From contig CAYGCC010000074.1 of assembly GCA_964348165.1 (NCBI GenBank), positions 5,128 to 69,127 of the forward strand: DNA of 64,000 nt, in the 5' to 3' direction. Both the position numbers and the translations under genes were made by a program. Shown piece by piece: positions 1 to 56,175 of this stretch. Under the pieces are notes generated by a model. It did not search any database. It was not told the origin of the DNA and saw only the letters and a list, made by a program, of their open reading frames with translations. The stretch is from an uncultured Gemmatimonadota bacterium (GTDB lineage: Bacteria; Gemmatimonadota; Gemmatimonadetes; Palauibacterales; KS3-K002). The first letter of the stretch is position 1; every line of letters starts with the position of its first letter.

Positions 1-1137
<1,137 letters not shown>

Positions 1138-1141
<4 letters not shown>

Positions 1142-2676
1142 GACCGGCTTCCACTGTTGGCTTCGGCTGGACGGCCGTGGCGCTAGCGGCGCTCGCCGTG
1201 CCGGGCTGCGGCGACGTAGAGCGCGGAGCCCAGCGCGCGTCCTACCGCGAACCGGTGGCGCGGTTGGAGCCGGCGTCGATCCGCGAGGCGCCCACTTCCC
1301 AGACGGTCGCGCTGCGGCCCGAGTACCGCCTGCGCCTCGACCCTTCGGCTCACACCGTCGCGGTCCGGCTCGAGATCGATGTGCCGCGCGCGGACTCGGT
1401 TTATCTCCGCTTTCGGGTCGATTGGGGTGGTTACCCCGGCCTGGCGGAGCGGGTACGGCGCTTACAGGCGTTCGCGGCGAGCGGCGGCCTGAGCGTTGCG
1501 CCGGTGACTGGGGAAGCGGGTTCGGGGCACCACGTCATCGCGGTCGATCGCCCGGGGCGAGTCACGATCATCTACGAAGCGCGGCTCACGCCGCCGGCGG
1601 ATTCGCGCCTTTATCATCGCGCCTCTCAACTCGCGGAAGAGGGCGGCCATCTGCTGACCGGCGATCTGCTGCCGTTTGTCTCTCTTGGCAGCCCCGACGG
1701 CGGCTGGCGCCAGGGCGCCACCATCTGGTTCAGCGGGCTCCCATCGAATTGGCGAGTCAACAGCGTCGAGCGCCGTTCCGGGACGGGATACGATGTGGAG
1801 GACACGCAGGGCGCCGTCTTCGTCGTCGGGCCCTCGCGCACGCGGCGCGCTCACATGGGGCCACGCTCCGTAACCGTGGCCATTCAGGGACGTTGGCCCG
1901 TCCCCGATGAGCGCCTGTTCGACGCTGTCGAGCGCTTGGCCGGAAGCCTGCACCGCATCGCCGGCGCCGGCTGGCCGTCCGGTGACCATCTGATCGGGGT
2001 GGGACGCGCGCCGGTGGCCGTGCAGGGTCTCACCACCGGCGGCCAGGTCCTCGGGCCCGCCGGTTTGATATATCTGGGAGGCGACCCGCAGCCGGAGGCA
2101 GCGATGGCCGCCTGGCTGCGCACGGCGTCCCACGAGCTGATGCACTGGTATATCCCCACCGGCTTCCGCTTTGCCGACGCGTCGCCCTCCTGGTTCGCCG
2201 AGGGCTTCACCGACTACATGTCGCTGAAGGCGCTATTGGCCGGCGGCCTCATCGAGCCGCAGGCGTTTCTCGATGAGATCGGCCAGCGGCTGCAGCGCTA
2301 CCGGGCCAACCCGCTTTATGGGCAGCTTTCGCTGCCCGAGGCCCAGACCGACTTCTGGGAGGACGACGCTTACCGCTTCATCTATGACGGAGGCGCCAGC
2401 GCGGCCTTCCTCCTCGACCTAGGATTTCAGGATCGGGGTGGATCGCTGGAACGGGTGCTCCGCCAGCTGCAGCGGGTCGCGCCGCTCACGACGGATACGA
2501 TACAAACGGCCCTTGCCGGGATACCCGAGAACGAATGGATCGTGGAATGGTTGCGGAGGGGCGCCAATCCCGACTGGGACGCGCGCTTGTCCAAGTACCG
2601 ACTGAACTGGAGCGGTCGAAGGCTGGTGAGTCAGGATGATTGGGCGACGAACGCATTGGCATCGATTCGTCCCTAG
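1138..2676 (+). CDS. Gluzincin-type zinc metallopeptidase lipoprotein (HEXXH-18-E, M1/M61-like)
   Basis: The ATG at 1138 overlaps the kinase stop (ATGA). Lipobox-like signal ALAALAVPGCG. HELMH followed 19 residues later by FAEGFTDY gives the third zinc ligand Glu. Confidence 0.6.
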
Positions 2677-4894
2677 CGCCGCGCCCTGGGTCGGGTCGGG
2701 ACACGCTGTCCGGAGCCTGACCCCGCTGCTGGCGCTGCTCATCCTCACTGCGGTTGAAGCGTTGAGCCAGGACATCCTCGAGTTGGCTCGATCCCGCCAT
2801 CGGCAGGGCGATACCACGCTGTCCGATTATCGCTCGCGCCTCAACACCTTGGTGAGCTTCGGGTTCGTCACCGACCCGCTCGCCCCCGCGAAGCTGCTGG
2901 TCGCCAGCGAGCTGGCGTCAGAGCTGGCCTGGCAGCGCGAGGGCGGCATGCAGGTGCGGATGCTGGGCCAGCGCTATGTCACCTCTTTCGGGTCCGATTT
3001 CGAAGCCGGCCTCGACTTCGACGAGCCCTGGTTCGTGGCGACCGCGCCGGGTGACAGCCTCCGCCTGCTGGGCGGGATCGAGATCCCGGCCCGCGCCGCC
3101 GTCCACCCCTTCGCCGTGGGCGCCGAGCGCTATTACCGCTACGCCATCGGCGACACCGTCACGCTCCTGACACCCGGTCGGCAGGTCGACCTGGTTGAGA
3201 TCCGGGTGACGCCAACGCGTGGTGACCAGGCGCTGGTCGTCGGATCGTTTTGGGTGCATGATGCGAGCGGTGAAGTCGGCGCCCTGCAGATCCGCTTCGT
3301 CGGTAAGCCGCTTTGGGCCAGCGAGGACCACCCCGACGGCTCGGCCTGGGCCAACCGCATCCTGTCGGTCTCCGCTACGGTCCAACAGGGGCTGTGGGAG
3401 CAACGCCACTGGCTGCCGCACCGCCAGGAAGTGGAGCTGATGGTGCGTGTCCCCTTCATCGGGCGCTTCGCGGTGCCGGTCGTCTTCCGCAGCGAGTTCG
3501 GTCGTTACACGATCAACACGGGAGAGCCGATCGCCTGGCTCAGCCCGGATTCGCTCCGTCTGCCGTGGGCGGGAGGTGAAAGCCAAGGCGAGGAGGCGGC
3601 GGCTACGTTGCCCGTGCAGGCCGGCGGAAAGGCCGAGCCGGTCGAGAGCGCTGAGGAGCGGCGCGGCCGGCGGCGCCGGCGCAGCTTTCCCGAGCGCGAC
3701 CAGCTGCAGGTGAGGGCGGGCCATCGCCAGGGCGGCTGGGAGATCATTCGACCGCCTGACGACTCGCTGGCCGCTTACGCCGGCTGGGACCGGCCGCTCG
3801 ACGCGCCGGCCTCCGAGCTGACGCTTCCCACGACGGCCGAGCTGGAGCGACGCGCTCGGCAGCTCGCACCGCAGATCGTCGGTGGAAAGATGTTCGCGAT
3901 CCAGTACGATCGCCTGCCCGAGCTGATCCGTTACAACCGCGTCGAGTCGCTGGGGATTGGACTGGCCGCGCGTTGGGACATCCCACGGCGCGCCTTCTGG
4001 TCGCTGGGCGGCGGAGTCGGCTTCGGCTTCGCCGACCTCGAGCCGAAGGGACGGCTGGACCTGCGCTACGACGCGCCCGGCACCCGGGCCCAGCTGACCG
4101 GCTACAGCGAGCTGCACCTGGCCGGCTCGGCGCTGACCGACGACCGCCGCGCCTACGGCGACCCGCTACGCGCCTTCTTCCTGGGGCGCGACGACGCCGA
4201 CTACTATCGGGGGAGCGGCGTGGCGTTGAGCGTCGGGCGGCGCTGGGGTCGGGTGGCCGGCCGGCTGGGGCTGGCGTTCGAGGATCAGCAGTCGGTGGAG
4301 CGCAACACGCAGGTGGCGATACCCGACATCTGGGAGGATTCGGTCTTCCGCCTCAACCCAGCGGCGGACGAGGGGACGTTCTGGCGCGGGGAGATCGAGT
4401 CCACCATATACCTGGGTGATTGGTCGCGGCCGACCGACCGCGGCGAGCTGCGGCTGGGTGCGGAGTTGGGGAGCGGAGCCGAAACGTTCGATTACGTGCA
4501 GCCGCGGGCCCGATTCGAGGGCCGCTTCGACCCCGGCGGACGGGTGGCGATCGCCTTCAGCGCCAGCGCCGGCTGGACGGGCGGCCAGGTGCCGGCGCAG
4601 CGTGAGTGGCGGCTGGGCGGCCTGAACACGGTGCGCGGGTTCGAGCACGGGGCCCGGCGCGGCGATTCCTACTGGAGCGCGCGGTTCGAGGCGAGCCCGC
4701 GGCGCAAAGCGATCACGCCGGTGGTCTTTGCCGACGTCGGTTGGGCCGGATCCACCGACGATTGGCCCGGCGGCGACGCGATCTGGTCGGTGGGAGCGGG
4801 CGCCAGCTTGCTGTGGGGAATCCTCCGCGCCGATCTCGTCTTCCCCGAGCTGGACGAAGTGTGGTTCGAGCTTTACTTCGGGGGCGCGCTCTAG
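2636..4894 (+). CDS. Hypothetical secreted/outer-membrane protein with an Omp85-like C-terminal beta-barrel module (start uncertain)
   Basis: Signal-like LTPLLALLILTAVEALSQ. The C-terminal half carries YNRVESL, DDADYYRGSG and LGGLNTVRGFEHG motifs shared with the 6684..8372 paralog and reminiscent of the surface antigen D15 barrel. Confidence 0.5.
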   Translation: MIGRRTHWHRFVPSAAPWVGSGHAVRSLTPLLALLILTAVEALSQDILELARSRHRQGDTTLSDYRSRLNTLVSFGFVTDPLAPAKLLVASELASELAWQREGGMQVRMLGQRYVTSFGSDFEAGLDFDEPWFVATAPGDSLRLLGGIEIPARAAVHPFAVGAERYYRYAIGDTVTLLTPGRQVDLVEIRVTPTRGDQALVVGSFWVHDASGEVGALQIRFVGKPLWASEDHPDGSAWANRILSVSATVQQGLWEQRHWLPHRQEVELMVRVPFIGRFAVPVVFRSEFGRYTINTGEPIAWLSPDSLRLPWAGGESQGEEAAATLPVQAGGKAEPVESAEERRGRRRRRSFPERDQLQVRAGHRQGGWEIIRPPDDSLAAYAGWDRPLDAPASELTLPTTAELERRARQLAPQIVGGKMFAIQYDRLPELIRYNRVESLGIGLAARWDIPRRAFWSLGGGVGFGFADLEPKGRLDLRYDAPGTRAQLTGYSELHLAGSALTDDRRAYGDPLRAFFLGRDDADYYRGSGVALSVGRRWGRVAGRLGLAFEDQQSVERNTQVAIPDIWEDSVFRLNPAADEGTFWRGEIESTIYLGDWSRPTDRGELRLGAELGSGAETFDYVQPRARFEGRFDPGGRVAIAFSASAGWTGGQVPAQREWRLGGLNTVRGFEHGARRGDSYWSARFEASPRRKAITPVVFADVGWAGSTDDWPGGDAIWSVGAGASLLWGILRADLVFPELDEVWFELYFGGAL

Positions 4895-5151
4895 GATCGG
4901 TGGCGTCAGCCACCGTGTGACTCCGCTCGTCCAGAAGTCGCCGAATGGTTGCCGGTGGTCGTCGAGGAGTTAGGCAAGTTCTGATAGACTAGCGAGACGC
5001 TGCGGGGGGAGGTGCCGGGGGTCCTCCGAGCGTAACTCGAGAGCGGGCCCGCTGGAACGGTCCACCCGGGCCGATCCCGACCCGCGAACGGTGAAGCGGG
5101 AGGGCCCCCGGGACCTCCCCCCACCACCAGACACCGGCAGTTGGAAGAAAC

Positions 5152-6519
5152 GTGACACACATCCTCATAGTTGACGACGAAGGCAACATCCGGCGGATGA
5201 TCGCCAGCCTGCTCGGCGCCGAGGGCTACACCACCAGCGAGGCCGAGTCGGCTGAGGCGGGCATCAAGCGGATGTCCGCCGAGGAGCCTGACGCCGTGCT
5301 CCTCGACCTGGCGCTGCCCGGCATGAGCGGGCTCGAGGCGCTGGAGAAGATCGCCGAGGGCTGGCCTGAGGTGCCGGTCGTGATGATGAGCGGTCAGGCC
5401 ACGTTGGGCGACGCCGTTCAGGCGACGCGGCTAGGCGCGTTTCAGTTTCTCGAGAAGCCGCTCACACCCGAGGCCGTGTTGATCACGCTCAAGTCGGCGT
5501 TGGAGCTTCGACGTCAGCGCGACCTCAACCGCGCCCTCAAGCAGGAGCTCGAGCCCGGGCAGGAGCTGGTCGGTAAGAGCGCCGCGATCGAGGAGGTCCG
5601 CGCGCTGATTCGAAGGGTCGCGCCCACCGACTCGCGGGTCCTGGTTACCGGCGAGAGCGGGACGGGCAAAGAGCTGGTGGCGGGGGCCATCCACGCGCTG
5701 TCGAAGCGGGTCCGCGGACCGTTCGTGCGCATCAATTGCGCGGCGATTCCCCGTGAGCTGATCGAAAGCGAGATGTTCGGCCATGAGAAGGGTGCGTTCA
5801 CCGGAGCGACTCGCCAGCGGCGCGGCAAGTTCGAGCTGGCGGACGGTGGCACACTGTTCCTCGACGAGGTGGGCGACCTGAGCGCCGAGGCGCAGGCCAA
5901 GCTGCTGCGGTCCATCGAGGCGGGCGAGATCGAGCGCGTCGGGGGAGGCGAGCTGATCCCGGTGGACGTGCGTGCGGTCGCCGCCACCAACCACGACCTC
6001 GAGGCCGAGGTGGAGGCGGGCCGCTTCCGCGAGGACCTCTTCTTCCGCCTGCACGTAATGCCGATCCACATCGCGCCGCTTCGGGAGCGGGTGGAAGACA
6101 TCCCGCTGCTCGTCGCTCACTTCTACGAGCGCTATCGCCAACGACATGGTCTACGGCCGCCCACGCTGACCGACGACGCGCTGGCGGCGCTCGTCGCCTA
6201 CGATTGGCCGGGCAACGTCCGCGAGCTGGGCAACGCCGTCGAGCGCCTGATGATCCTCTATCCAGAGCGCCCGGTTGGCGCGGCAGAGATCGCCGGCGTC
6301 TTGCCCAGCGCACGGCGCGGCGAGCCGGTCCCGGTTGGCGACGGCGGCTCGCTGTCGGAGAAGCTGGAAGCCTATGAGCGCCGGCTGATTCAGGGCGCCC
6401 TCAGCGCCGCCGACGGCAACATCGCCGAGGCGGCGCGGCGACTGAGCACCGATCGGCCCAACCTTTACCGGCGGATGAAGCGTCTGGGGCTACGGCGCGA
6501 AGCGGCGGACGAGCGCTGA
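5152..6519 (+). CDS. Sigma54-dependent response regulator, NtrC/Fis family (REC + AAA+ sigma54 activation + HTH)
   Basis: N-terminal receiver with D54-like LLDLALPGMSG, Walker A GESGTGKE, GAFTGA motif, and a C-terminal Fis-type HTH NIAEAARRLSTDRPNLYRRMKRLG. Confidence 0.9.
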   Translation: MTHILIVDDEGNIRRMIASLLGAEGYTTSEAESAEAGIKRMSAEEPDAVLLDLALPGMSGLEALEKIAEGWPEVPVVMMSGQATLGDAVQATRLGAFQFLEKPLTPEAVLITLKSALELRRQRDLNRALKQELEPGQELVGKSAAIEEVRALIRRVAPTDSRVLVTGESGTGKELVAGAIHALSKRVRGPFVRINCAAIPRELIESEMFGHEKGAFTGATRQRRGKFELADGGTLFLDEVGDLSAEAQAKLLRSIEAGEIERVGGGELIPVDVRAVAATNHDLEAEVEAGRFREDLFFRLHVMPIHIAPLRERVEDIPLLVAHFYERYRQRHGLRPPTLTDDALAALVAYDWPGNVRELGNAVERLMILYPERPVGAAEIAGVLPSARRGEPVPVGDGGSLSEKLEAYERRLIQGALSAADGNIAEAARRLSTDRPNLYRRMKRLGLRREAADER

Positions 6520-6623
6520 CCGCCTGTGCGGCATCCGCACACCCAGCGTGGCCGATTGACACGATGGGCCAACACCGGCGGTCGAGAAGCCGCATGAAAC
6601 CGTCGCGCGCGGCCGCGCACCCA

Positions 6624-6639
6624 CGGCACCCGGTTTGCC
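6624..6639 (+). promoter_or_regulatory. Sigma54 (-24/-12) promoter candidate cGGCACccggtTTGCc
   Basis: GG and GC elements are 12 nt apart, matching TGGCAC-N5-TTGC. It lies about 45 bp upstream of the ATG at 6684, directly downstream of the sigma54 activator gene. A GGAGGA Shine-Dalgarno sits at 6672-6677. Confidence 0.5.
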
Positions 6640-6683
6640 TCCGAGCGGGCGGAGGACACAGTTTGCCTGTGGGAGGAGCAAGT

Positions 6684-8372
6684 ATGAGAGGCGCGCTACC
6701 TCTACTCGTCGCAGTCGCCCTTACCTTCAGCGCCACGCTCGATATCGCCGCGCAGGACACCGTCACCGTCGGTGTGCGCCAGCCGCTGGCCCAAGGCGCG
6801 GAGCTGCCGCGGCGCGTGGCCGACCAGCTGGTGGAGTTCTACAACCGCCCCACCACGCTCCGCTTCAGCGGCCGCACGCGAATCCCCGAGGGCCGCACCG
6901 TCGAGGGCGACGTGGCCATCCTGGGAGGGCCGGTCGAACTAGCCGGGGTGATCGCCGGTGATCTGGTGGTGCTGAACGGCGACATCACGCTCCGCGAAGG
7001 TGCCCATGTCCAGGGCGATCTCACCGTCGTGGGCGGCATCACCATCGGCGCCGAGGATGGGCGCGTCGACGGTTTCATGACGACCTACCCGGCCGTCTTC
7101 CGCTACCGCCGCACCGAAGAGGGGATTGCCTACGCCGGCTCGCAGCGGCCCGAGCCGATCCGGCCCCGGCGCCGGCGCCTGGACCTGCCACGCTGGACGC
7201 TGGGAGAGAGCGAGATCTACGTCTCCGCCCGACCGTACAACCGCGTCGAGGCGCTGCCGATTGCCATCGGCCCTCGCATCACCACGGGCGGCCGCAACCC
7301 CCTACGCATCGATGCCCTGCTGATCTATCGGACAGAGGCGGGCTTCGATCCCGATGAGAACGACGCCGGCTACCAGGTGCGGCTGCGCCAGTGGTTGGGC
7401 GGCCGCCGCGCCATCTGGATCGAAGGGGGCGTGCATTCGATCATCGACCCCGTCGAGGACTGGAAGCTCACGAACCTGGAGAACTCGCTGGCATTGTTGC
7501 TCTTCCGGCGCGATTACCGCGATTACTACGAGCGACAAGGCTTTTTTGGCGGTGTCGGCTGGCGGGCAACTCCCAGCTTGACCGGCTCGCTCGAATTCCG
7601 GATCGAGGATCACAACGCGGTGTCGGCCCGCAGCCCCTGGACCATCTTCTTCAACACCGACGACCGCTTCCGGGCGAACGCCGCGGCGGATGGCGGCGAC
7701 CTGGAGAGCCTGGTCCTTACCCTTGGGCTCGACACGCGCAACGATCGGGACGAGCCCTGGTCCGGCTGGTTCGGTAAGTTGCGCCTCGAGCAGGCCGTCG
7801 GCGGCCGGCTGTCGGAACGAGACCCGGACTTCACCCACTTCTTCCTCGACCTCAGGCGCTACAACCGCGTGAGCCGTACCTCCGTGCTGGCGCTGCGGGC
7901 GGTGACCGGGGGACGCGCCGGCGGCGGCTTCCTGCCGTCCCAGCGGCAGCATGTGCTCGGTGGCGCGGGGTCGCTTCCCGGCTACAACCAGCTTCAGTTC
8001 GACTGCGGCGCCCGCGCCCGCACATCGTTCGGCACGGTCCCCGACTACGGCTGCGAGCGCTTCGCCCTATTCCAGGCGGAGTACCGCAGTGGGCTCGACT
8101 TCCATTTCCACTGGGACTACGATCAGGGGCCGGAGGATTTCTACGGCGACGTCTTCAGCGCGGACTTCGATCCCACGATCGTCCTGTTCTATAATGCGGG
8201 CGCGGCCTGGGACACGCGCGACGGTTTTTTGGACCATCTGACGGATAGCGATAACTGGTTAGCGGATATCGGCGGCGGTATCGAGCTGGGCGGCCTCGGC
8301 TTTTACACTGCTTACCCTCTGACCGGATCCGGGGGATTCAACTTCATCGTGCGTCTTTCCGCCAGATTCTAA
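6684..8372 (+). CDS. Outer-membrane protein with N-terminal bactofilin-like beta-helix and Omp85-like C-terminal barrel
   Basis: Signal peptide MRGALPLLVAVALTFSATLDIAAQ. Repeats GDVAILGGPVELAGVIAGDLVVLNGDITLREGAHVQGDLTVVGGITIG. C-terminal barrel ending ...FNFIVRLSARF (terminal Phe), with YNRVEAL and DYRDYYERQG motifs shared with the 2636..4894 paralog. Confidence 0.6.
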   Translation: MRGALPLLVAVALTFSATLDIAAQDTVTVGVRQPLAQGAELPRRVADQLVEFYNRPTTLRFSGRTRIPEGRTVEGDVAILGGPVELAGVIAGDLVVLNGDITLREGAHVQGDLTVVGGITIGAEDGRVDGFMTTYPAVFRYRRTEEGIAYAGSQRPEPIRPRRRRLDLPRWTLGESEIYVSARPYNRVEALPIAIGPRITTGGRNPLRIDALLIYRTEAGFDPDENDAGYQVRLRQWLGGRRAIWIEGGVHSIIDPVEDWKLTNLENSLALLLFRRDYRDYYERQGFFGGVGWRATPSLTGSLEFRIEDHNAVSARSPWTIFFNTDDRFRANAAADGGDLESLVLTLGLDTRNDRDEPWSGWFGKLRLEQAVGGRLSERDPDFTHFFLDLRRYNRVSRTSVLALRAVTGGRAGGGFLPSQRQHVLGGAGSLPGYNQLQFDCGARARTSFGTVPDYGCERFALFQAEYRSGLDFHFHWDYDQGPEDFYGDVFSADFDPTIVLFYNAGAAWDTRDGFLDHLTDSDNWLADIGGGIELGGLGFYTAYPLTGSGGFNFIVRLSARF

Positions 8373-8389
8373 TCGCGGTTGGCCTGGCC

Positions 8390-8989
8390 GTGGCCTCGGC
8401 CGTCTCCCAACCCTCGGCGGCCCAACAGGCGCCTCAGCTTCTCCTATCGCCCGGCACGTCGGAGAACGGCTGGCGGGCGGCCCTCCGGCCCGTGGCTCTG
8501 CTGTCCGACTCGGCGCTCATTCGACCGCTCGTCTCCGGCCTCCCCCTCCGCTTTCACTTCCAGCTCGAGCTCTGGCATGACCGCTTTCTGTTCGACGGGC
8601 TCGTAGACCGGGCAAGCTGGACGCTGTTTCTCTACCAGGAGCCGCTGTCCGGCGACTACAGCCTCACCCGCTCCTGGGAACCGGAACGCGACGAGTGGTT
8701 TCCCACCCTGGGCGCGGCGGCGCGGGCGCTGGAGCGTTGGTACCTGGCGCCGATCCCCGGACCCGAGCCCAGCAGCGGCCGTTACTACTACGAGGCGCGG
8801 CTGGAGGTCGAGATCCTCTCGCTGGGCGACCTGGACGAGCTGGAGCACTGGCTGCGCGGCGAGGTCGGCGAGGATGAGGGCGATGTGGGGGGCGCGGTCG
8901 CCCGCGGGTTCAAGCGGCTGTTCATCCGCCTCATCGGCCTCTCGGCCCGCAAGTACGAGGCGCGCACCGAGCTGTTCCAACCTCGCTGA
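8390..8989 (+). CDS. Hypothetical protein (DUF-like, about 199 aa), probably co-transcribed with the upstream outer-membrane protein gene
   Basis: Open frame with high GC3, starting 18 nt after the upstream stop. No motif recognised. Confidence 0.45.
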   Translation: MASAVSQPSAAQQAPQLLLSPGTSENGWRAALRPVALLSDSALIRPLVSGLPLRFHFQLELWHDRFLFDGLVDRASWTLFLYQEPLSGDYSLTRSWEPERDEWFPTLGAAARALERWYLAPIPGPEPSSGRYYYEARLEVEILSLGDLDELEHWLRGEVGEDEGDVGGAVARGFKRLFIRLIGLSARKYEARTELFQPR

Positions 8990-9203
8990 CCCCGCCACCC
9001 GGCCACCCTCGACAGCGAGGGGGCCGCCGGATAAGTTATTCAGTTACAAGATTTTTTGAACCATCGGCTGCCCATCGAACGCCGGTGCGACAGAGCCAGA
9101 AAGGGGCTTCCGGGAGGGCCACACCGCCGCCCGTCGGCCCTTTTTGATTTTCTCGCGAATCGACAACCCGCGAGAATCAGAGCCTCGAGGAGGTGAATAA
9201 TAG

Positions 9204-9401
9204 ATGGTCAAAGTCATCGTCCACGAGAACGACGACCTCGAGCGCGCGCTCCGAAAGTTCAAGCGCAAGATGATCCGCTCGGGCCTCTTCCGTGACATGA
9301 AGAGAAAGCGGTACTACGAGAAGCCGAGCGAAGTAAAGCGGCGCAAGGCGCGGGCGAACGAACGTCGGCGCCGGCGTGCCCAGCGCGCGAGGCGCCCGTG
9401 A
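9204..9401 (+). CDS. rpsU: 30S ribosomal protein S21
   Basis: MVKVIVHENDDLERALRKFKRKMIRSGLFRDMKRKRYYEKPSEVKRRKARANERRRRR is typical bS21. A strong Shine-Dalgarno GGAGGTG lies 8 nt upstream. Confidence 0.9.
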   Translation: MVKVIVHENDDLERALRKFKRKMIRSGLFRDMKRKRYYEKPSEVKRRKARANERRRRRAQRARRP

Positions 9402-9408
9402 ACCCGAC

Positions 9409-9447
9409 GGGCCAGCCGCCGGCTGCCGGTGGGCTGGCCCTTCTCTT
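9409..9447 (+). terminator. Rho-independent terminator candidate after rpsU
   Basis: GGGCCAGCC-N14-GGCTGGCCC stem followed by TTCTCTT. Confidence 0.4.
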
Positions 9448-9565
9448 AATCTGCCATACGAATCGGTTGGCCCGCGACCGCAAGCACTGCTAGCTTCCTC
9501 CGACTCAGAACGGGCCCGATTCACAAACCGATCTCGCTTCAGCCTATAACCCGAGGTGTTCACAT

Positions 9566-12500
9566 ATGATCGCGATGCGTTACCGGCTTCTTAGCTGCTT
9601 AGCCGCTTGGTCCCTGCTCGTCACACCCAACCTAGAGGCGCAGGAGCCGGCCAAGAGCGAATGGGATGTGGAGGCGGACCACGGACCCTCGCGAACGCTC
9701 GAGTTCGAGACGGACGAGGGGACCTGGATGAACCTCGACGTGAGCCCGGACGGCCGCTGGGTCGTCTTCGACCTGCTGGGCGAGATCTACCGAGTTCCGA
9801 TTCGGGGTGGCGACGCCGAGCTGCTCTCCGGCGGCGTCTCTTACGAGCACCAGCCGCGCTATAGCCCCGACGGGCGGACCATCGCCTTCGTCAGCGATCG
9901 CAGCGGCATCGACAACATCTGGTTGATGGATGCCGACGGCTCGAATCGGCGACAGTTGACCAAAGAGAAAGACTCGCTTCCCACTGCCCCGGTCTGGGCG
10001 CCCGACGGTCAGTACGTGGTGGTGAAGCGGCACGTGCGGAGCACGCGCTCGCTGGGGGGTGGCGAGCTGTGGATGTATCACCTGCGGGGCGGCTCGGGGG
10101 TCAAGCTGGTCGAGAAGTTGAGCTTCACCTCCGAGCTAAACGAGCCGATGCTCTCCCCGGACGGCCGCTACGTCTATTACGTCTTCGCCGGTCCCTTCGA
10201 TTACAACCGCGACGTCCACGACGGGATCTTTCAGATCAATCGTTACGACCGGGAGAGCGGCGAGGTCGAGCCGGTAACCCGCGGGCCCGGCGGCGCGATC
10301 CGTCCCACGCCCTCACCCGACGGGCGCGCCGTCGCCTTCATCCGTCGCGTCGGGACAAACACCGTGCTCTTCATCCGCGATCTCGAGACCGGGGTCGACC
10401 GACCGCTCTTCAACGGACTGGAGAAGGACCAGATGGAGACCTGGACGGTGCACGGCGCCTACCCGGCCTTCGCCTGGACGCCCGACTCGCGGCGGATCGT
10501 GATCAACTTCGGCGGCAAGCTCTGGTCGCTGGACGCCGGCACGGGCCAGCCGGCGGCCGTCCCGTTCCGCGCGGCCGTCAGCCAGCGCATCACCGAGGCG
10601 CTGCATTTCGACTATCCGATCGCCGACGACTCCCTGCGCGCCCGCCTGATCCGCTGGCCGACGATCACCCCGGACGGCCGCCGGCTCGTCTTTCAGGCGG
10701 TGGGCCACATCTACCAGATGGGGCTGCCGAGCGGGAAGCCGCAGCGGGTCACCGACCTGGCGGCGCTGGAGTACGCGCCCGCCTTGTCGCCCGACGGCCG
10801 CTCGCTCACTTTCGTCACCTGGGACGACGACGAGGGCGGCCAAATCTGGCGCGTGCAGCTCCCGCGTCCCGGACAGCGGGCCCGGCCCCAGCAACTCACC
10901 GCCACGCCCAACCAGTACGCGAACCCGGTCTTCTCACCTGACGGCGGCCGCATCGCCTTCGTGCGCGGGAGCGGACGCGCCAATCGCGGCCAGGACCTCG
11001 GGGCCGAGCTGTACCTGGAGATCCACACGATGTCCGCCCAGGGCGGCGCGTCGCAGCTGGTCACCACCACGGCCAACCGGGGCGCGAACCGCCGCATGCC
11101 CCGGCCACGCTGGAGCGCCGACGGCACGCGGCTGCTCTATCAAGAAAGCGATGAGGACAAGACGTACCTGACCAGCGTCAAGCTGGATGGGACCGACAAG
11201 CGCCACCTGATGGAGAACGAGCGTGCGGAAGAGATCGTCCCGTCGCCGGACGGCAAGTGGGTCGCCTTCAAGGAGCTGCACAACGTGCACGTGGCGCCGC
11301 TACCGATGGCGGGCGCCGACCCGCTGAAGATCGAGGCCGGAGGCGCCGGCGTGCCGGTAAAGACGCTGACGCGATACGGCGGCGACTGGATCGACTGGTC
11401 GCGCGACAGCCGCAGCGTGAGCTATGTGCTCGGGCCGACGGTTTACCGTCATACGCTCGAAACGATCTTCGCCGAGGAAGAGGAGAGCGAGGAAGAAGAG
11501 GCGAGCGAATCGGAAGAAGAAACGAAGCCGAACCATGTCTTCGAGGGTGATCTCTTCGAGATCGCGCTCGCGGTTCCCAAGGCGCGTCCCAGCGGCGCAC
11601 TAGCGCTGACGGGCGCCCGCCTCATAACGATGCGCGGTGACGAGGTGATCGCCAACGGCACGATCGTCGTCGACGGGACCCGTATCGTGGCCGTGGGCGC
11701 GTCGAGCCAGGTGCAGGTGCCGCGCGGGGCCCGGGTCATCGATGTGGCCGGCAAGACGATCATCCCGGGACTGGTGGACGTGCACGCCCACATGGGTTAC
11801 TCCGCCCTCGACATCAATCCACAGCGCGAGTGGCGCTACTACGCCAACCTCGCCTACGGCGTCACCAGCACGCTCGACCCTTCGGCGAGCACGCAGGCGG
11901 TCTTCGCCCAGGCGGAGATGGTGGACGCCGGTCTGATGCTCGGGCCGCGCATCTACTCCACCGGGTTCATCCTCTACGGTGCCGAGAACGCCAACAAGGC
12001 GGTGATCAACAGCCTGGATGACGCCCGCTATCACATCCGCCGCCTCAAGGCGCAGGGCGCGACGGCGGTGAAGAGCTACAACCAGATGAGGCGCGACGTG
12101 CGCCAGTGGGTCATCGAGGCGGCACGCGAGGAAGGCATCCTGGTGGTGCCGGAAGGCGGCTCGATGTACCAGCAGAACATTAGCATGGTGCTGGACGGAC
12201 ATACCGGCATCGAGCACGCCATCCCGATCGCACCCCTCTACCGAGACGCGCTTCAGCTCGTCGGGCGCAGCCGCACCGGCTACACGCCCACGCTCGTCGT
12301 CGGGTATGGCGGCATCTGGGGTGAGAACTACTGGTATCAGCACTACGACGTATACGAGAACGAGCGGCTGTTACAGTTCACGCCGCGCGGCATCCTCGAC
12401 TCTCGCGCCCGCCGTCGAATGCTGATTCCCGAGGACGAATGGAACCACATCGAGCTGGCGAAGGCGGCGAAAGCGATCGTGGAAGCCGGCGGCCGCGTGC

Positions 12501-55002: not shown

Positions 55003-56175
55003 GTGCCTGTCATGCCGGAAACGCTAACCGTACTGGAGGCGACCGGGAAGCTCGGCGTGGGTGAAGTCGAAACCCATGTGAGCCGACTGGCGATGGGTCT
55101 CATCCGGCGCGGTCACCGTGTCATCCTGCTGAACGAGAAGGGCGGCGGTTTCGGTGAGGAGGCCCGGAAGGCGGGCGCCGAGCTGCTGAGCGTCCCCTTC
55201 GATGAGACGGGCCGCCGCCAGGTTACCGACCGGGTCAAGCCGGGCAGCGTCGATCTCGTCCACACGCACAACTACGGCGCCGCCCGCTTCGCCGCGCCCC
55301 TCGCCCGGGCACTGGGCGTGCCGCACCTGCTGACGGTGCATGGGCTGCGGCCCTGGTACAAGCGCGCCCTGTTCCGCGATTGGGGCGATACCGTCCTGAC
55401 GGTCAGCGAGGCCGGCCGTGACGGCGTAGTAGGACCGTTCGGCCCCCCGGCCGACCGGGTACGCGTCAGCTTCCTCGGCGTCGACACCGACCGCTTTCGT
55501 CCCGGCCTCGACGGCGCCCGAATCCGCGCTGAGTGGCAGCTACCGGAGGACGCACGGTTGGTAGTCAACGTGAGCCGCTTCAGCCATCGCAAGGCGCGGC
55601 CGGCGCGAGCGCTGCTCGAGGCACTGCCGCTGTTGCTTGAGGATGTCCCCGCGGCTCACCTCGTCTTCGTCGGAGATGGGCCGCAGCTGGACCGTCTCCT
55701 CAAGACCGTGGAGCGCGTGAACGACTCCCTGGGACGGCGCGTCGCCACAGTCGTGGGGCACGGCGCTGATATACCCGAGGTGATGAACGCCGCCGACGTC
55801 GTGATCGCCGCCGCCAGCACGGCGATCGAGGCGCTCTCCTGCGGCACGCCGACCATCGCCTTCGGCTCCACCGGCTACTTCGGCATCGTCACGCCCGACA
55901 ATCTGGAGGGCGCGCGCGCCGTCTGCTTCGCCGATCACGGCCACCTGCCGGCGCGAGTCAGTGCCTTGCGTCTCGCCGACGACTTGATCTGGTTGCTGAA
56001 GGATCGCGCGGCAGCGCGCCGCGACGCCGAGGCGATCCGTGCGGCGCTCGCCGAGCGTTACAGCGTCGATCGAATGGCCGAGCAGATTGAGCACGTCTAC
56101 CGCCAAATCGTCGGCGGCGATACAGCCGGCCACGAGAGCACACCGCGCGCCGTGTCCATGGCGCGGCAAGTGTAA
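55003..56175 (+). CDS. Glycosyltransferase family 4 (GT-B)
   Basis: GT-B fold, with C-terminal E…E motif region AASTAIEALSCGTPTIAF. Confidence 0.7.
   Translation: MPVMPETLTVLEATGKLGVGEVETHVSRLAMGLIRRGHRVILLNEKGGGFGEEARKAGAELLSVPFDETGRRQVTDRVKPGSVDLVHTHNYGAARFAAPLARALGVPHLLTVHGLRPWYKRALFRDWGDTVLTVSEAGRDGVVGPFGPPADRVRVSFLGVDTDRFRPGLDGARIRAEWQLPEDARLVVNVSRFSHRKARPARALLEALPLLLEDVPAAHLVFVGDGPQLDRLLKTVERVNDSLGRRVATVVGHGADIPEVMNAADVVIAAASTAIEALSCGTPTIAFGSTGYFGIVTPDNLEGARAVCFADHGHLPARVSALRLADDLIWLLKDRAAARRDAEAIRAALAERYSVDRMAEQIEHVYRQIVGGDTAGHESTPRAVSMARQV

Follow-up and report, generated by a model that had tools for sequence, protein, structure and literature searches.

A predicted sigma-54-controlled module of a two-component system, an Omp85-family barrel and a DUF4390 protein in Gemmatimonadota

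The sequence analysed here (the window) is a 64,000-nucleotide stretch of contig CAYGCC010000074.1 from an uncultured Gemmatimonadota bacterium (GCA_964348165.1); the DNA is high in GC and its homologues are named as Gemmatimonadota, Gemmatimonadales and Longimicrobiales. Toward its left end lie rightwards-transcribed genes coding for a sensor histidine kinase, an NtrC-family response regulator of the enhancer-binding protein (EBP) type, an outer-membrane barrel protein of the Omp85 superfamily, and a DUF4390 protein, with a predicted sigma-54 promoter in the 164-bp gap between the EBP and barrel genes (Table 1). We interpret these four genes as a dedicated envelope signalling module conserved across Gemmatimonadota, which we regard as likely and as the best explanation overall. 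Judging from the sequence comparisons, the joining of a sigma-54 two-component circuit to an Omp85-family barrel and an accessory protein of the DUF4390 family is widespread in this phylum and undescribed as a combination.

The organization of these genes is strongly conserved. The comparative set consists of 88 related loci, gathered by a metagenome scan and protein look-ups (a scan of genome contigs yielded one locus), the first 86 of which were used for synteny and motif counts. When scored by tblastn with six window proteins, the order kinase, EBP, barrel, DUF4390 is kept without exception in 74 distinct loci, and it persists down to 34% identity of the barrel proteins. The EBP gene is directly upstream of the barrel gene in 41/41 loci, the DUF4390 gene is downstream of it in 55/55, and a kinase gene is located upstream in all 36 of the loci with enough flanking sequence for it to be counted. 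No candidate substrate gene is conserved at the locus among those compared.

Table 1. Features of the kinase, EBP, barrel and DUF4390 locus and its surroundings. Coordinates are those of the window.
Feature	Coordinates	Strand	Size or sequence	Basis or remark
Sensor histidine kinase	2..1141	+	C-terminal 379 aa	Translation; N-terminus beyond the left end of the window
M61-family zinc metallopeptidase-like protein	1138..2676	+		Pfam Peptidase_M61, 31.4 bits (cut-off 22)
Second Omp85-superfamily protein	2636..4894	+	752 aa	Pfam ShlB E 1.1e-6, Omp85 E 1.2e-4
Gap, second Omp85 gene to EBP gene	4895-5151		258 bp	
NtrC-family enhancer-binding response regulator (EBP)	5152..6519	+		Pfam
Intergenic region, EBP gene to barrel gene			164 bp	
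Second palindrome	6525..6541		GTGC-N7-GCAC, TGTGCGGCATCCGCACA	Centred 22 bp upstream of the main palindrome
Candidate upstream activator sequence (main palindrome)	6548..6562		GTGGC-CGATT-GACAC, GTGGCCGATTGACAC	Family consensus GTGTC-N5-GACAC
Predicted sigma-54 -24/-12 element	6625..6638	+	GGCAC-N5-TTGC, GGCACCCGGTTTGC	Motif scan and conservation
5'-untranslated region (UTR) element	6659..6667	+	CAGTTTGCC	Alignment of 14 intergenic regions
Outer-membrane barrel protein	6684..8372	+	562 aa	Pfam, AlphaFold, Foldseek
DUF4390 protein	8366..8989; listed open reading frame from GTG 8390	+		Pfam PF14334
Terminator-like hairpin, weak T tail	9418..9438	+		Terminator scan

The EBP is, by its domain composition, a complete NtrC-family protein, with a receiver, a GAFTGA-containing AAA+ domain and a C-terminal helix-turn-helix, in agreement with the original prediction of an NtrC-type activator at this position. 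Pfam matches are to Response_reg (PF00072, E 3.9e-27), Sigma54_activat (PF00158, E 2.5e-70, 236 bits), AAA_lid_14 (PF25601) and the Fis-type helix-turn-helix HTH_8 (PF02954), and the translation includes a Walker A motif (GESGTGKE), GAFTGA, and the receiver Asp in 'VLLDLALPG'. The NCBIfam scores for NtrC, AtoC, PrsR and NtrX are about equal and all below cut-off; the NtrX equivalog model NF051870 aligns end to end with 405 bits (cut-off 600), and the GlrR model scores 312 bits (cut-off 763).

Full-length relatives of the kinase have a first transmembrane segment, a periplasmic loop of ~65 aa, a second transmembrane segment, and HAMP, HisKA and HATPase domains. Pfam searches with the full-length orthologues at loci L002 and L006 identify HAMP, HisKA and HATPase_c and find no PAS domain. 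The best NCBIfam matches are AtoS, PrsK and ZraS, all of which are partners of sigma-54 activators, although the scores are far below cut-off. Eight residues of the loop (W47, G54, H77, E80, L81, S84, R90 and R97) are invariant among sequences that are 41-70% identical, which argues for a conserved periplasmic interaction of the kinase. NtrY has the architecture HAMP-PAS-HisKA, and by our estimate the ~65-aa loop looks too short for a PDC domain. Assignment of the pair to NtrYX was rejected, given an NtrX score under cut-off and a kinase lacking PAS and, as judged, PDC domains.

The GGCAC-N5-TTGC motif expected upstream of the barrel gene is present within the non-coding gap and on the strand of that gene, with its -12 GC 46 nt ahead of the ATG at 6684. 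With its flanking bases (CGGCAC-N5-TTGCC, 6624-6639), the core is perfect and there are two mismatches to TGGCAC-N5-TTGCW. The predicted transcription start is near 6650, and a ribosome-binding site (GGGAGGAG) is located at 6671-6678. We estimate the chance of a match on the right strand within a gap of this size at ~7e-4. Promoter and palindrome counts were made in the 52 loci with usable upstream sequence, with intergenic regions aligned within four sequence groups. In 42 of the 52, a GGYAY-N6-TGC motif precedes the start codon of the barrel gene by 34-59 nt, against a background of 7.9e-5 per position (1.58 Mb, both strands, true sites included). These 42 sites are in 42 distinct sequence contexts, G is preferred at -20 as in the consensus TGGCACG, and the relatives include the near-perfect TGGTACGGTCCCTGCT; both the promoter spacing and its distance from the gene are kept across proteins only 34-40% identical. 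A promoter scan, which does not cover the housekeeping promoters of Gemmatimonadota, detected no sigma-70-like promoter in 4800-9700. Together with the conserved palindrome described below and the exceptionless gene order, the conserved -24/-12 element upholds the original claim that a sigma-54 promoter drives the barrel gene, and we consider control of the barrel-DUF4390 operon by sigma-54 and the EBP to be highly probable.

A second sigma-54 promoter at TTTGC (6662-6666) was rejected, there being no GG at the right spacing. Far to the right in the window, at 55308-55322, the palindromic sequence GGCACTGGGCGTGCC fits a loose -24/-12 pattern on both strands; it is located inside the open reading frame at 55003-56175, and the match is probably due to chance.

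The centre of the candidate upstream activator sequence is 71 nt ahead of the -24 GG, at about -95 from the predicted start, and the window has no other such site. Sites matching GTGTC-N5-GACAC with no more than one mismatch are present 60-110 nt upstream of the -24 GG in 31/52 loci, with each of the four sequence groups represented (background 7.1e-5 per position), and across ~790 kb of related loci the palindrome is found almost only before the barrel gene. At locus L049, where the EBP and barrel genes are separated by a 2.3-kb gap (1950-4145), the promoter and palindrome stay by the barrel gene. From its position, dyad symmetry and conservation the palindrome is likely the expected enhancer site of an NtrC-family dimer, and the protein that binds it is probably the adjacent EBP. 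The half-sites TGTC and GACA, and the use of an NtrC-family EBP, are also seen in the GlrK-GlrR (QseEF) system, for which an upstream activator sequence TGTC-N10-GACA is tabulated (PMC4987338). The spacer here is N7 (TGTC-N7-GACA) rather than N10, and the targets and the kinase differ.

The second palindrome (GTGC-N7-GCAC; TGTGCGGCATCCGCACA in the window) is seen in 9/52 loci, compared with 0.011 expected per locus, and only with a spacer of 7 among spacers of 3-12. Its outer bases are conserved, and the interior is variable and not always complementary; it is a candidate second activator site, restricted to the close group of relatives. Its interpretation as a terminator was rejected, as it has no T-run, a non-complementary interior and a fixed spacer, and no terminator was called there. 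Within the predicted 5'-UTR, CAGTTTGCC adjoins the ribosome-binding site and is nearly invariant in 14 close relatives, but is absent from the distant groups; this region can form a small hairpin, CACAG-TTTGC-CTGTG.

The barrel protein has each of the parts described for it originally, a signal peptide, a beta-helix and a barrel ending in Phe. The signal peptide (MRGALPLLVAVALTFSATLDIAA, residues 1-23, preceding QD) is followed by a capping helix and right-handed beta-helix (~40-152, nt 6801-7139), an Arg-rich linker (~153-176), and the barrel (~177-562). The AlphaFold model (predicted local distance difference test score, pLDDT, of 73 for the whole protein) has a helix at 43-54, a beta-helix at 59-150 (pLDDT 81-93), a disordered linker and ~16 strands. 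The linker varies greatly in length between relatives, and the C-terminus, ...RLSARF in the window, ends in F, L or I among them. An alternative start at ATG 6564 was rejected, as the extension is Arg-rich, not conserved and without a ribosome-binding site, whereas 6684 has both a ribosome-binding site and the signal peptide.

Of the two modules proposed for this protein, Omp85 is identified directly by Pfam (PF01103, 34.8 bits, cut-off 24; 18/24 relatives also match), and Foldseek finds the barrels of BamA, Sam50 and TamA, the best match being 8xnb (BamA, E 1.5e-9). The bactofilin assignment stands at the level of fold. The window copy scores 14.9 bits with Bactofilin PF04519, under the cut-off of 27.9; a match at E<=0.01 is seen in 11/24 diverse relatives (best 5.6e-6), and a profile search against PDB sequences reaches bactofilin 6ria only at E 0.29. 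The N-terminal domain has the right-handed beta-helix fold of bactofilins, and on the structural model the bactofilin-like label is correct in this sense. It is not a cytoskeletal bactofilin, because it is exported via a signal peptide and tethered to an outer-membrane barrel; these two features and a conserved helix at the N-terminal end set it apart from the bactofilins (Caulobacter BacA 2n3d, Thermus 6ria, PF04519), and its exported location excludes polymerisation in the cytoplasm.

Pfam finds no POTRA domain in the window copy or in 24 relatives, and the beta-helix is in its place. In an alignment of 24 members, which is the basis of the residue numbering and invariance given here, the L6 motif is S-L-P-G-Y, with L431, P432 and G433 invariant in 24/24. 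The Arg of the lid-lock motif (V/I)RG(Y/F), which forms a salt bridge conserved in all solved Omp85 structures and belongs to the defined signature motifs (PMC4490367), is replaced by the invariant Pro. The strand-13 motif, defined as (F/G)xDxG, reads F-x-D/N-x-G in this family, has F502 and G506 invariant and is FYNAG in the window; its central residue is Asp in most relatives, and Asn in the window and some close relatives. Two Cys residues, C441 and C457, are also invariant.

A survey of the Omp85 superfamily recognises ten subfamilies, none of which has a beta-helix N-terminal domain (PMC4104836), and none of the papers in the library searched mentions both bactofilin and Omp85. The architecture, which had been predicted to be uncommon, is so relative to the published classification; within Gemmatimonadota it is not, as the family includes at least 1553 proteins in one search at E<=1e-10 (396 representatives of 50%-identity clusters at E<=1e-30). 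The beta-helix is not obligatory. Some relatives are barrel-only and keep the same neighbours, which identifies the barrel and DUF4390 proteins as the invariant pair; an example is P0383, where the DUF4390 gene follows with a 4-nt overlap. At locus L088 (GCA_039922775.1), a 910-aa open reading frame (4673-7405) extends from the EBP into a barrel-only gene with no stop between. The barrel part begins with a Met and signal peptide of its own, and a DUF4390 gene follows; the fused frame reflects either an overlap of the two genes in frame, the loss of a stop codon or a misassembly.

Other Omp85 proteins without POTRA domains (the patatin-Omp85 PlpD, noNterm, WD40-Omp85 and Metallo-Omp85) similarly combine a 16-strand barrel with an alternative N-terminal domain or none (PMC4104836, PMC11116518, PMC11358297). 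The PlpD N-terminal domain, formerly thought to be secreted, is periplasmic (PMC11116518), and PlpD provides a precedent both for an N-terminal domain that stays in the periplasm and for reuse of the Omp85 scaffold for new functions. The proteins described here differ from these in their bactofilin-fold domain, which is outside the ten subfamilies, in the L6 change from Arg to Pro, in their two-component and sigma-54 control, and in their pairing with DUF4390.

The 199-aa protein noted originally as an unknown downstream of the barrel exists as an open reading frame at 8390-8989, but its identity is no longer open, since it matches DUF4390 (30.8 bits, cut-off 27, E 2.4e-7). PF14334 is carried by most of 76 homologues, with distant members at E 4e-6 to 0.025. 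The proteins of Longimicrobiales and of soil Gemmatimonadaceae begin with an evident signal peptide, and their canonical start codon either overlaps the barrel stop or comes after it. In the window, a signal-peptide-like stretch (ILIAVGLAVASAVSQPSAAQ) is in frame upstream of the listed GTG. The codons at the barrel stop in the junction (8330-8420) are ATT-CTA/CTG-ATC, with the barrel TAA at 8370-8372; the codon overlapping the stop is CTG, CTA or TTG in loci L001, L002, L004, L008, L012, L015, L018 and L021, and gene callers give proteins of 157 to 209 aa in the close group. The conserved signal-peptide-like stretch upstream of the listed start points to a start that is probably a non-canonical codon, at which translation in the close group probably begins by termination-reinitiation. 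As such a start would overlap or adjoin the barrel stop, translational coupling of the two genes is suggested, and the DUF4390 protein is probably located in the periplasm.

A DUF4390 protein, PlrP, has been characterised in Bordetella, where genetic work published in 2026 shows that it serves the NtrYX-family system PlrSR as a third component, located in the periplasm; PlrP keeps the phosphatase activity of PlrS in check and is thought to act through the periplasmic PDC domain of that kinase (PMC13001219). PlrP-type proteins always colocalise with NtrYX-type systems in beta- and gamma-proteobacteria, and the same paper suggests that comparable proteins may exist beyond the Proteobacteria (PMC13001219). 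The Gemmatimonadota module is alike in that the gene for a DUF4390 protein, with a signal peptide or signal-peptide-like stretch, is always linked to those for a membrane kinase and an NtrC-family regulator (PMC13001219), and in its probable coupling by overlapping stop and start codons. The identity of the downstream protein as DUF4390 gives the module a plausible feedback arm in the form of a PlrP-like periplasmic protein. The gene order differs, however, being rsmB - plrP - plrS - plrR in proteobacteria and kinase - EBP - barrel - DUF4390 here, the kinase differs in its domains and periplasmic loop as described above, and the DUF4390 gene here is behind a sigma-54 promoter. We know of no Omp85 partner in the proteobacterial PlrP-type systems.

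A similar circuit is found in the ZraP-ZraS-ZraR system, in which envelope stress leads ZraR to activate the sigma-54 promoter of the gene for ZraP, a periplasmic protein (PMC4987338); ZraP is named a repressor of ZraSR in the title of a reference listed in that paper. Both have a kinase and an EBP acting, or here predicted to act, at a sigma-54 promoter for a periplasmic accessory protein, and ZraP is reported to act as a repressor of its system. The NCBIfam models for ZraS and ZraR score comparatively well with the kinase and EBP, although far below the equivalog cut-offs. The Zra system differs from the present module in that ZraP, a zinc-binding chaperone, has no relation to DUF4390, the promoters are divergent, and no component is located in the outer membrane.

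We propose the following scheme for how the module would operate. A cue in the envelope or periplasm would shift the balance of kinase and phosphatase activities, and the phosphorylated EBP would bind the palindrome or palindromes, oligomerise, and remodel the sigma-54 holoenzyme at 6625-6638. The barrel and DUF4390 proteins would be produced together in coupled amounts, and the DUF4390 protein would act back on the kinase in the periplasm, closing a feedback loop by analogy with PlrP/PlrS and ZraP/ZraSR. Through its N-terminal domain, which would be periplasmic by default Omp85 topology, the barrel would be the outer-membrane partner or anchor of the DUF4390 protein. The parts of this scheme are not equally firm. 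Sequence comparison lends strong support to the steps from the kinase to the joint production of the two proteins. Modulation of the kinase by the DUF4390 protein is proposed tentatively, at somewhat short of even confidence. The loss of the lid-lock Arg and of the POTRA domain, the invariable DUF4390 pairing, and the lack of a conserved substrate gene lean towards anchoring or sensing, and a role of the barrel as sensor or anchor rather than transporter is possible, if doubtful. More speculative still, and in our view unlikely, is an outer-to-inner-membrane relay formed by the barrel and DUF4390 proteins, in which the Omp85 scaffold would have been turned into a sensor or anchor whose bactofilin-like rod in the periplasm retains the DUF4390 adaptor or lets it go, depending on the condition of the outer membrane, and the freed adaptor sets the kinase/phosphatase balance. 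Such a relay, if real, would represent a new kind of stress sensing across the envelope and a general mechanism for DUF4390, with a logic comparable to that of RcsF with outer-membrane proteins or of FecA-FecR.

Several observations weigh against a dedicated signalling module as set out here, or against parts of it. The promoter motif is not significant on its own in the window, where there is one match compared with 0.60 expected and at least one match in 43/100 shuffles, and relaxed consensus scans of the window give fewer matches than chance; the promoter claim therefore rests on context and conservation. A regular-expression search for the RpoN box has no match within the 64-kb window; sigma-54 is reported in nearly all diderm bacteria containing lipopolysaccharide (PMC3162934). 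Ten of the 52 loci are without the promoter motif, and control must differ in these, since most have no intergenic gap. The hydrophobic ...AAAQ stretch at the start of the DUF4390 protein is conserved in frame in the close group, including the window, without an ATG, GTG or TTG. The kinase is not demonstrably an orthologue of NtrY or PlrS, lacking a PAS domain and having a short loop, and the analogy with PlrP may not transfer to a kinase of this kind, whose loop we judge too short for PDC. Moreover, plrP is coupled to the kinase gene in Bordetella, whereas in the present loci the coupling is between the DUF4390 and barrel genes. Lastly, the placement of the beta-helix in the periplasm or at the surface is a prediction; we consider it periplasmic in view of the topology that Omp85 proteins have by default, a linker that varies in length, and the precedent of PlpD.

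In most of the motif-less loci (e.g. L026, L028, L029, L041, L045, L054 and L057), the EBP stop abuts the barrel start, and the two genes are presumably co-transcribed in what is apparently one fused operon. Five such loci have a conserved sigma-54-like sequence, GGCACGrCGGATGC, shortly before the kinase gene but on the other strand (L026, 2029-2042, - strand; also L028, L029, L041 and L054). It is ~120 nt before a divergent 247-aa open reading frame (L026, 1166-1909) with no assigned function, which the same activator may control as an alternative.

Among other explanations, the one that best accommodates the data is that the barrel is a working Omp85 machine, a regulated transporter or insertase similar to TamA, BamA or TpsB, acting on a specific substrate, with the DUF4390 protein as its periplasmic helper, the two-component system setting only its level of expression, and no feedback on the kinase. 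Omp85 proteins in general insert or translocate proteins (PMC4104836), the barrel has matches to BamA, TamA and Sam50, and a helper would fit both the coupling of the DUF4390 gene to the barrel gene rather than the kinase gene and its retention by barrel-only variants. A transporter is harder to reconcile with the failure to find a POTRA domain, the invariant Pro at the lid-lock Arg position in all 24 aligned members, the lack of a conserved substrate gene, and the action on a kinase of the sole experimentally characterised DUF4390 member, and we consider it unlikely.

Less probable again is that the two-component system is a global NtrYX-type regulator with a broad regulon (nitrogen, respiration, envelope), for which the barrel operon is merely the nearest target. 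The end-to-end alignment of the NtrX equivalog model with the EBP at 405 bits, and the colocalisation of DUF4390 with NtrYX in beta- and gamma-proteobacteria, would be expected of such a system. Yet the NtrX score is under the 600-bit cut-off with NtrC, AtoC and PrsR about equal, the kinase has no PAS domain and best matches AtoS, PrsK and ZraS, the palindrome is confined to one copy in 64 kb and almost only to sites before the barrel gene in relatives, and the four genes always travel together, all of which make a broad regulon improbable.

A self-exporting surface protein similar to type V systems, with the beta-helix as a passenger threaded through its own barrel and displayed as an adhesin or ice-binding-like rod, is also decidedly improbable. 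The resemblance to passengers is generic to right-handed beta-helices, the helix is only ~110 aa, the linker, disordered and different in length between relatives, is more in keeping with a tether than with a segment spanning the pore, barrel-only relatives are found in the same context, and the N-terminal domain of PlpD has since been shown to be periplasmic (PMC11116518). That the promoter motif is a chance match, with the barrel gene read through from the EBP gene or transcribed from an unrecognised housekeeping promoter, draws on its non-significance in the window alone, on the ~10/52 motif-less loci with abutting genes, and on a promoter scan that does not cover Gemmatimonadota housekeeping promoters, but is very improbable indeed given 42 distinct contexts in which the invariant positions keep both their spacing and their distance from the gene, across proteins only 34-40% identical, a palindrome conserved at enhancer distance, and a GAFTGA activator adjacent in every locus.

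If the dedicated signalling module is as we describe, it extends the principle of DUF4390 as a third component, known only in beta- and gamma-proteobacteria, to another phylum, and includes an outer-membrane partner not previously seen. The barrel protein defines an Omp85 subfamily with a beta-helix N-terminal domain and no lid-lock Arg that is absent from the published classification, adding to recent evidence that the Omp85 scaffold is reused beyond protein insertion. The locus provides a complete predicted regulatory region (palindrome, -24/-12 element and 5'-UTR element) for a phylum with almost no defined promoters, and is in keeping with the idea that sigma-54 controls the exterior of the cell.

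The envelope module had originally been drawn to include the metallopeptidase and second Omp85 genes that are located between the kinase and EBP genes in the window. The kinase, EBP, barrel and DUF4390 part of that proposal is conserved, but the other two genes are, from their distribution, a lineage-specific insertion outside the conserved core; they occur together only in close loci with barrel identity of at least 56% (tblastn), and the second Omp85 paralogue is counted in 7/36 loci. The M61 start codon, ATG at 1138, overlaps the kinase stop (ATGA), and the protein has an N-terminal signal- or lipoprotein-like sequence and an HELMH motif. By BLASTP, the second Omp85 protein is 28% identical to the barrel protein over 189 aa (E 4e-5), and the two are only distant relatives; the second retains the canonical lid-lock motifs VRGF and FADVG. 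It has a ~430-aa N-terminal region with faint similarity to DUF5686 and an Arg/Glu-rich low-complexity stretch. In Longimicrobiales-type loci the slot filled in the window's group by these two genes is occupied by a 239-aa lipoprotein-like open reading frame with an LFVGGC lipobox (L026, 3800-4519).

Downstream of the DUF4390 gene, the terminator-like hairpin is the sole candidate for the end of the operon before the next gene (9566), although support for it as a terminator is weak (1 found compared with 2.8 expected by chance). Farther downstream are unrelated housekeeping-type genes, including those coding for a PD40/amidohydrolase protein, DUF3047, a pyridoxal phosphate enzyme, and SurE. 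The gap upstream of the EBP gene includes, at 5004-5122, inverted-repeat arms of 24 nt that are 92% complementary and close a ~120-nt hairpin. Its RNA minimum free energy is -94.7 kcal/mol (z = -6.1 relative to shuffles), it is unique in the window, and it has no match in Rfam, a scan of which over 4800-9100 gave no family. The same junction is only 7-16 bp in L002 and L008, and the hairpin therefore looks like an inserted structured element.

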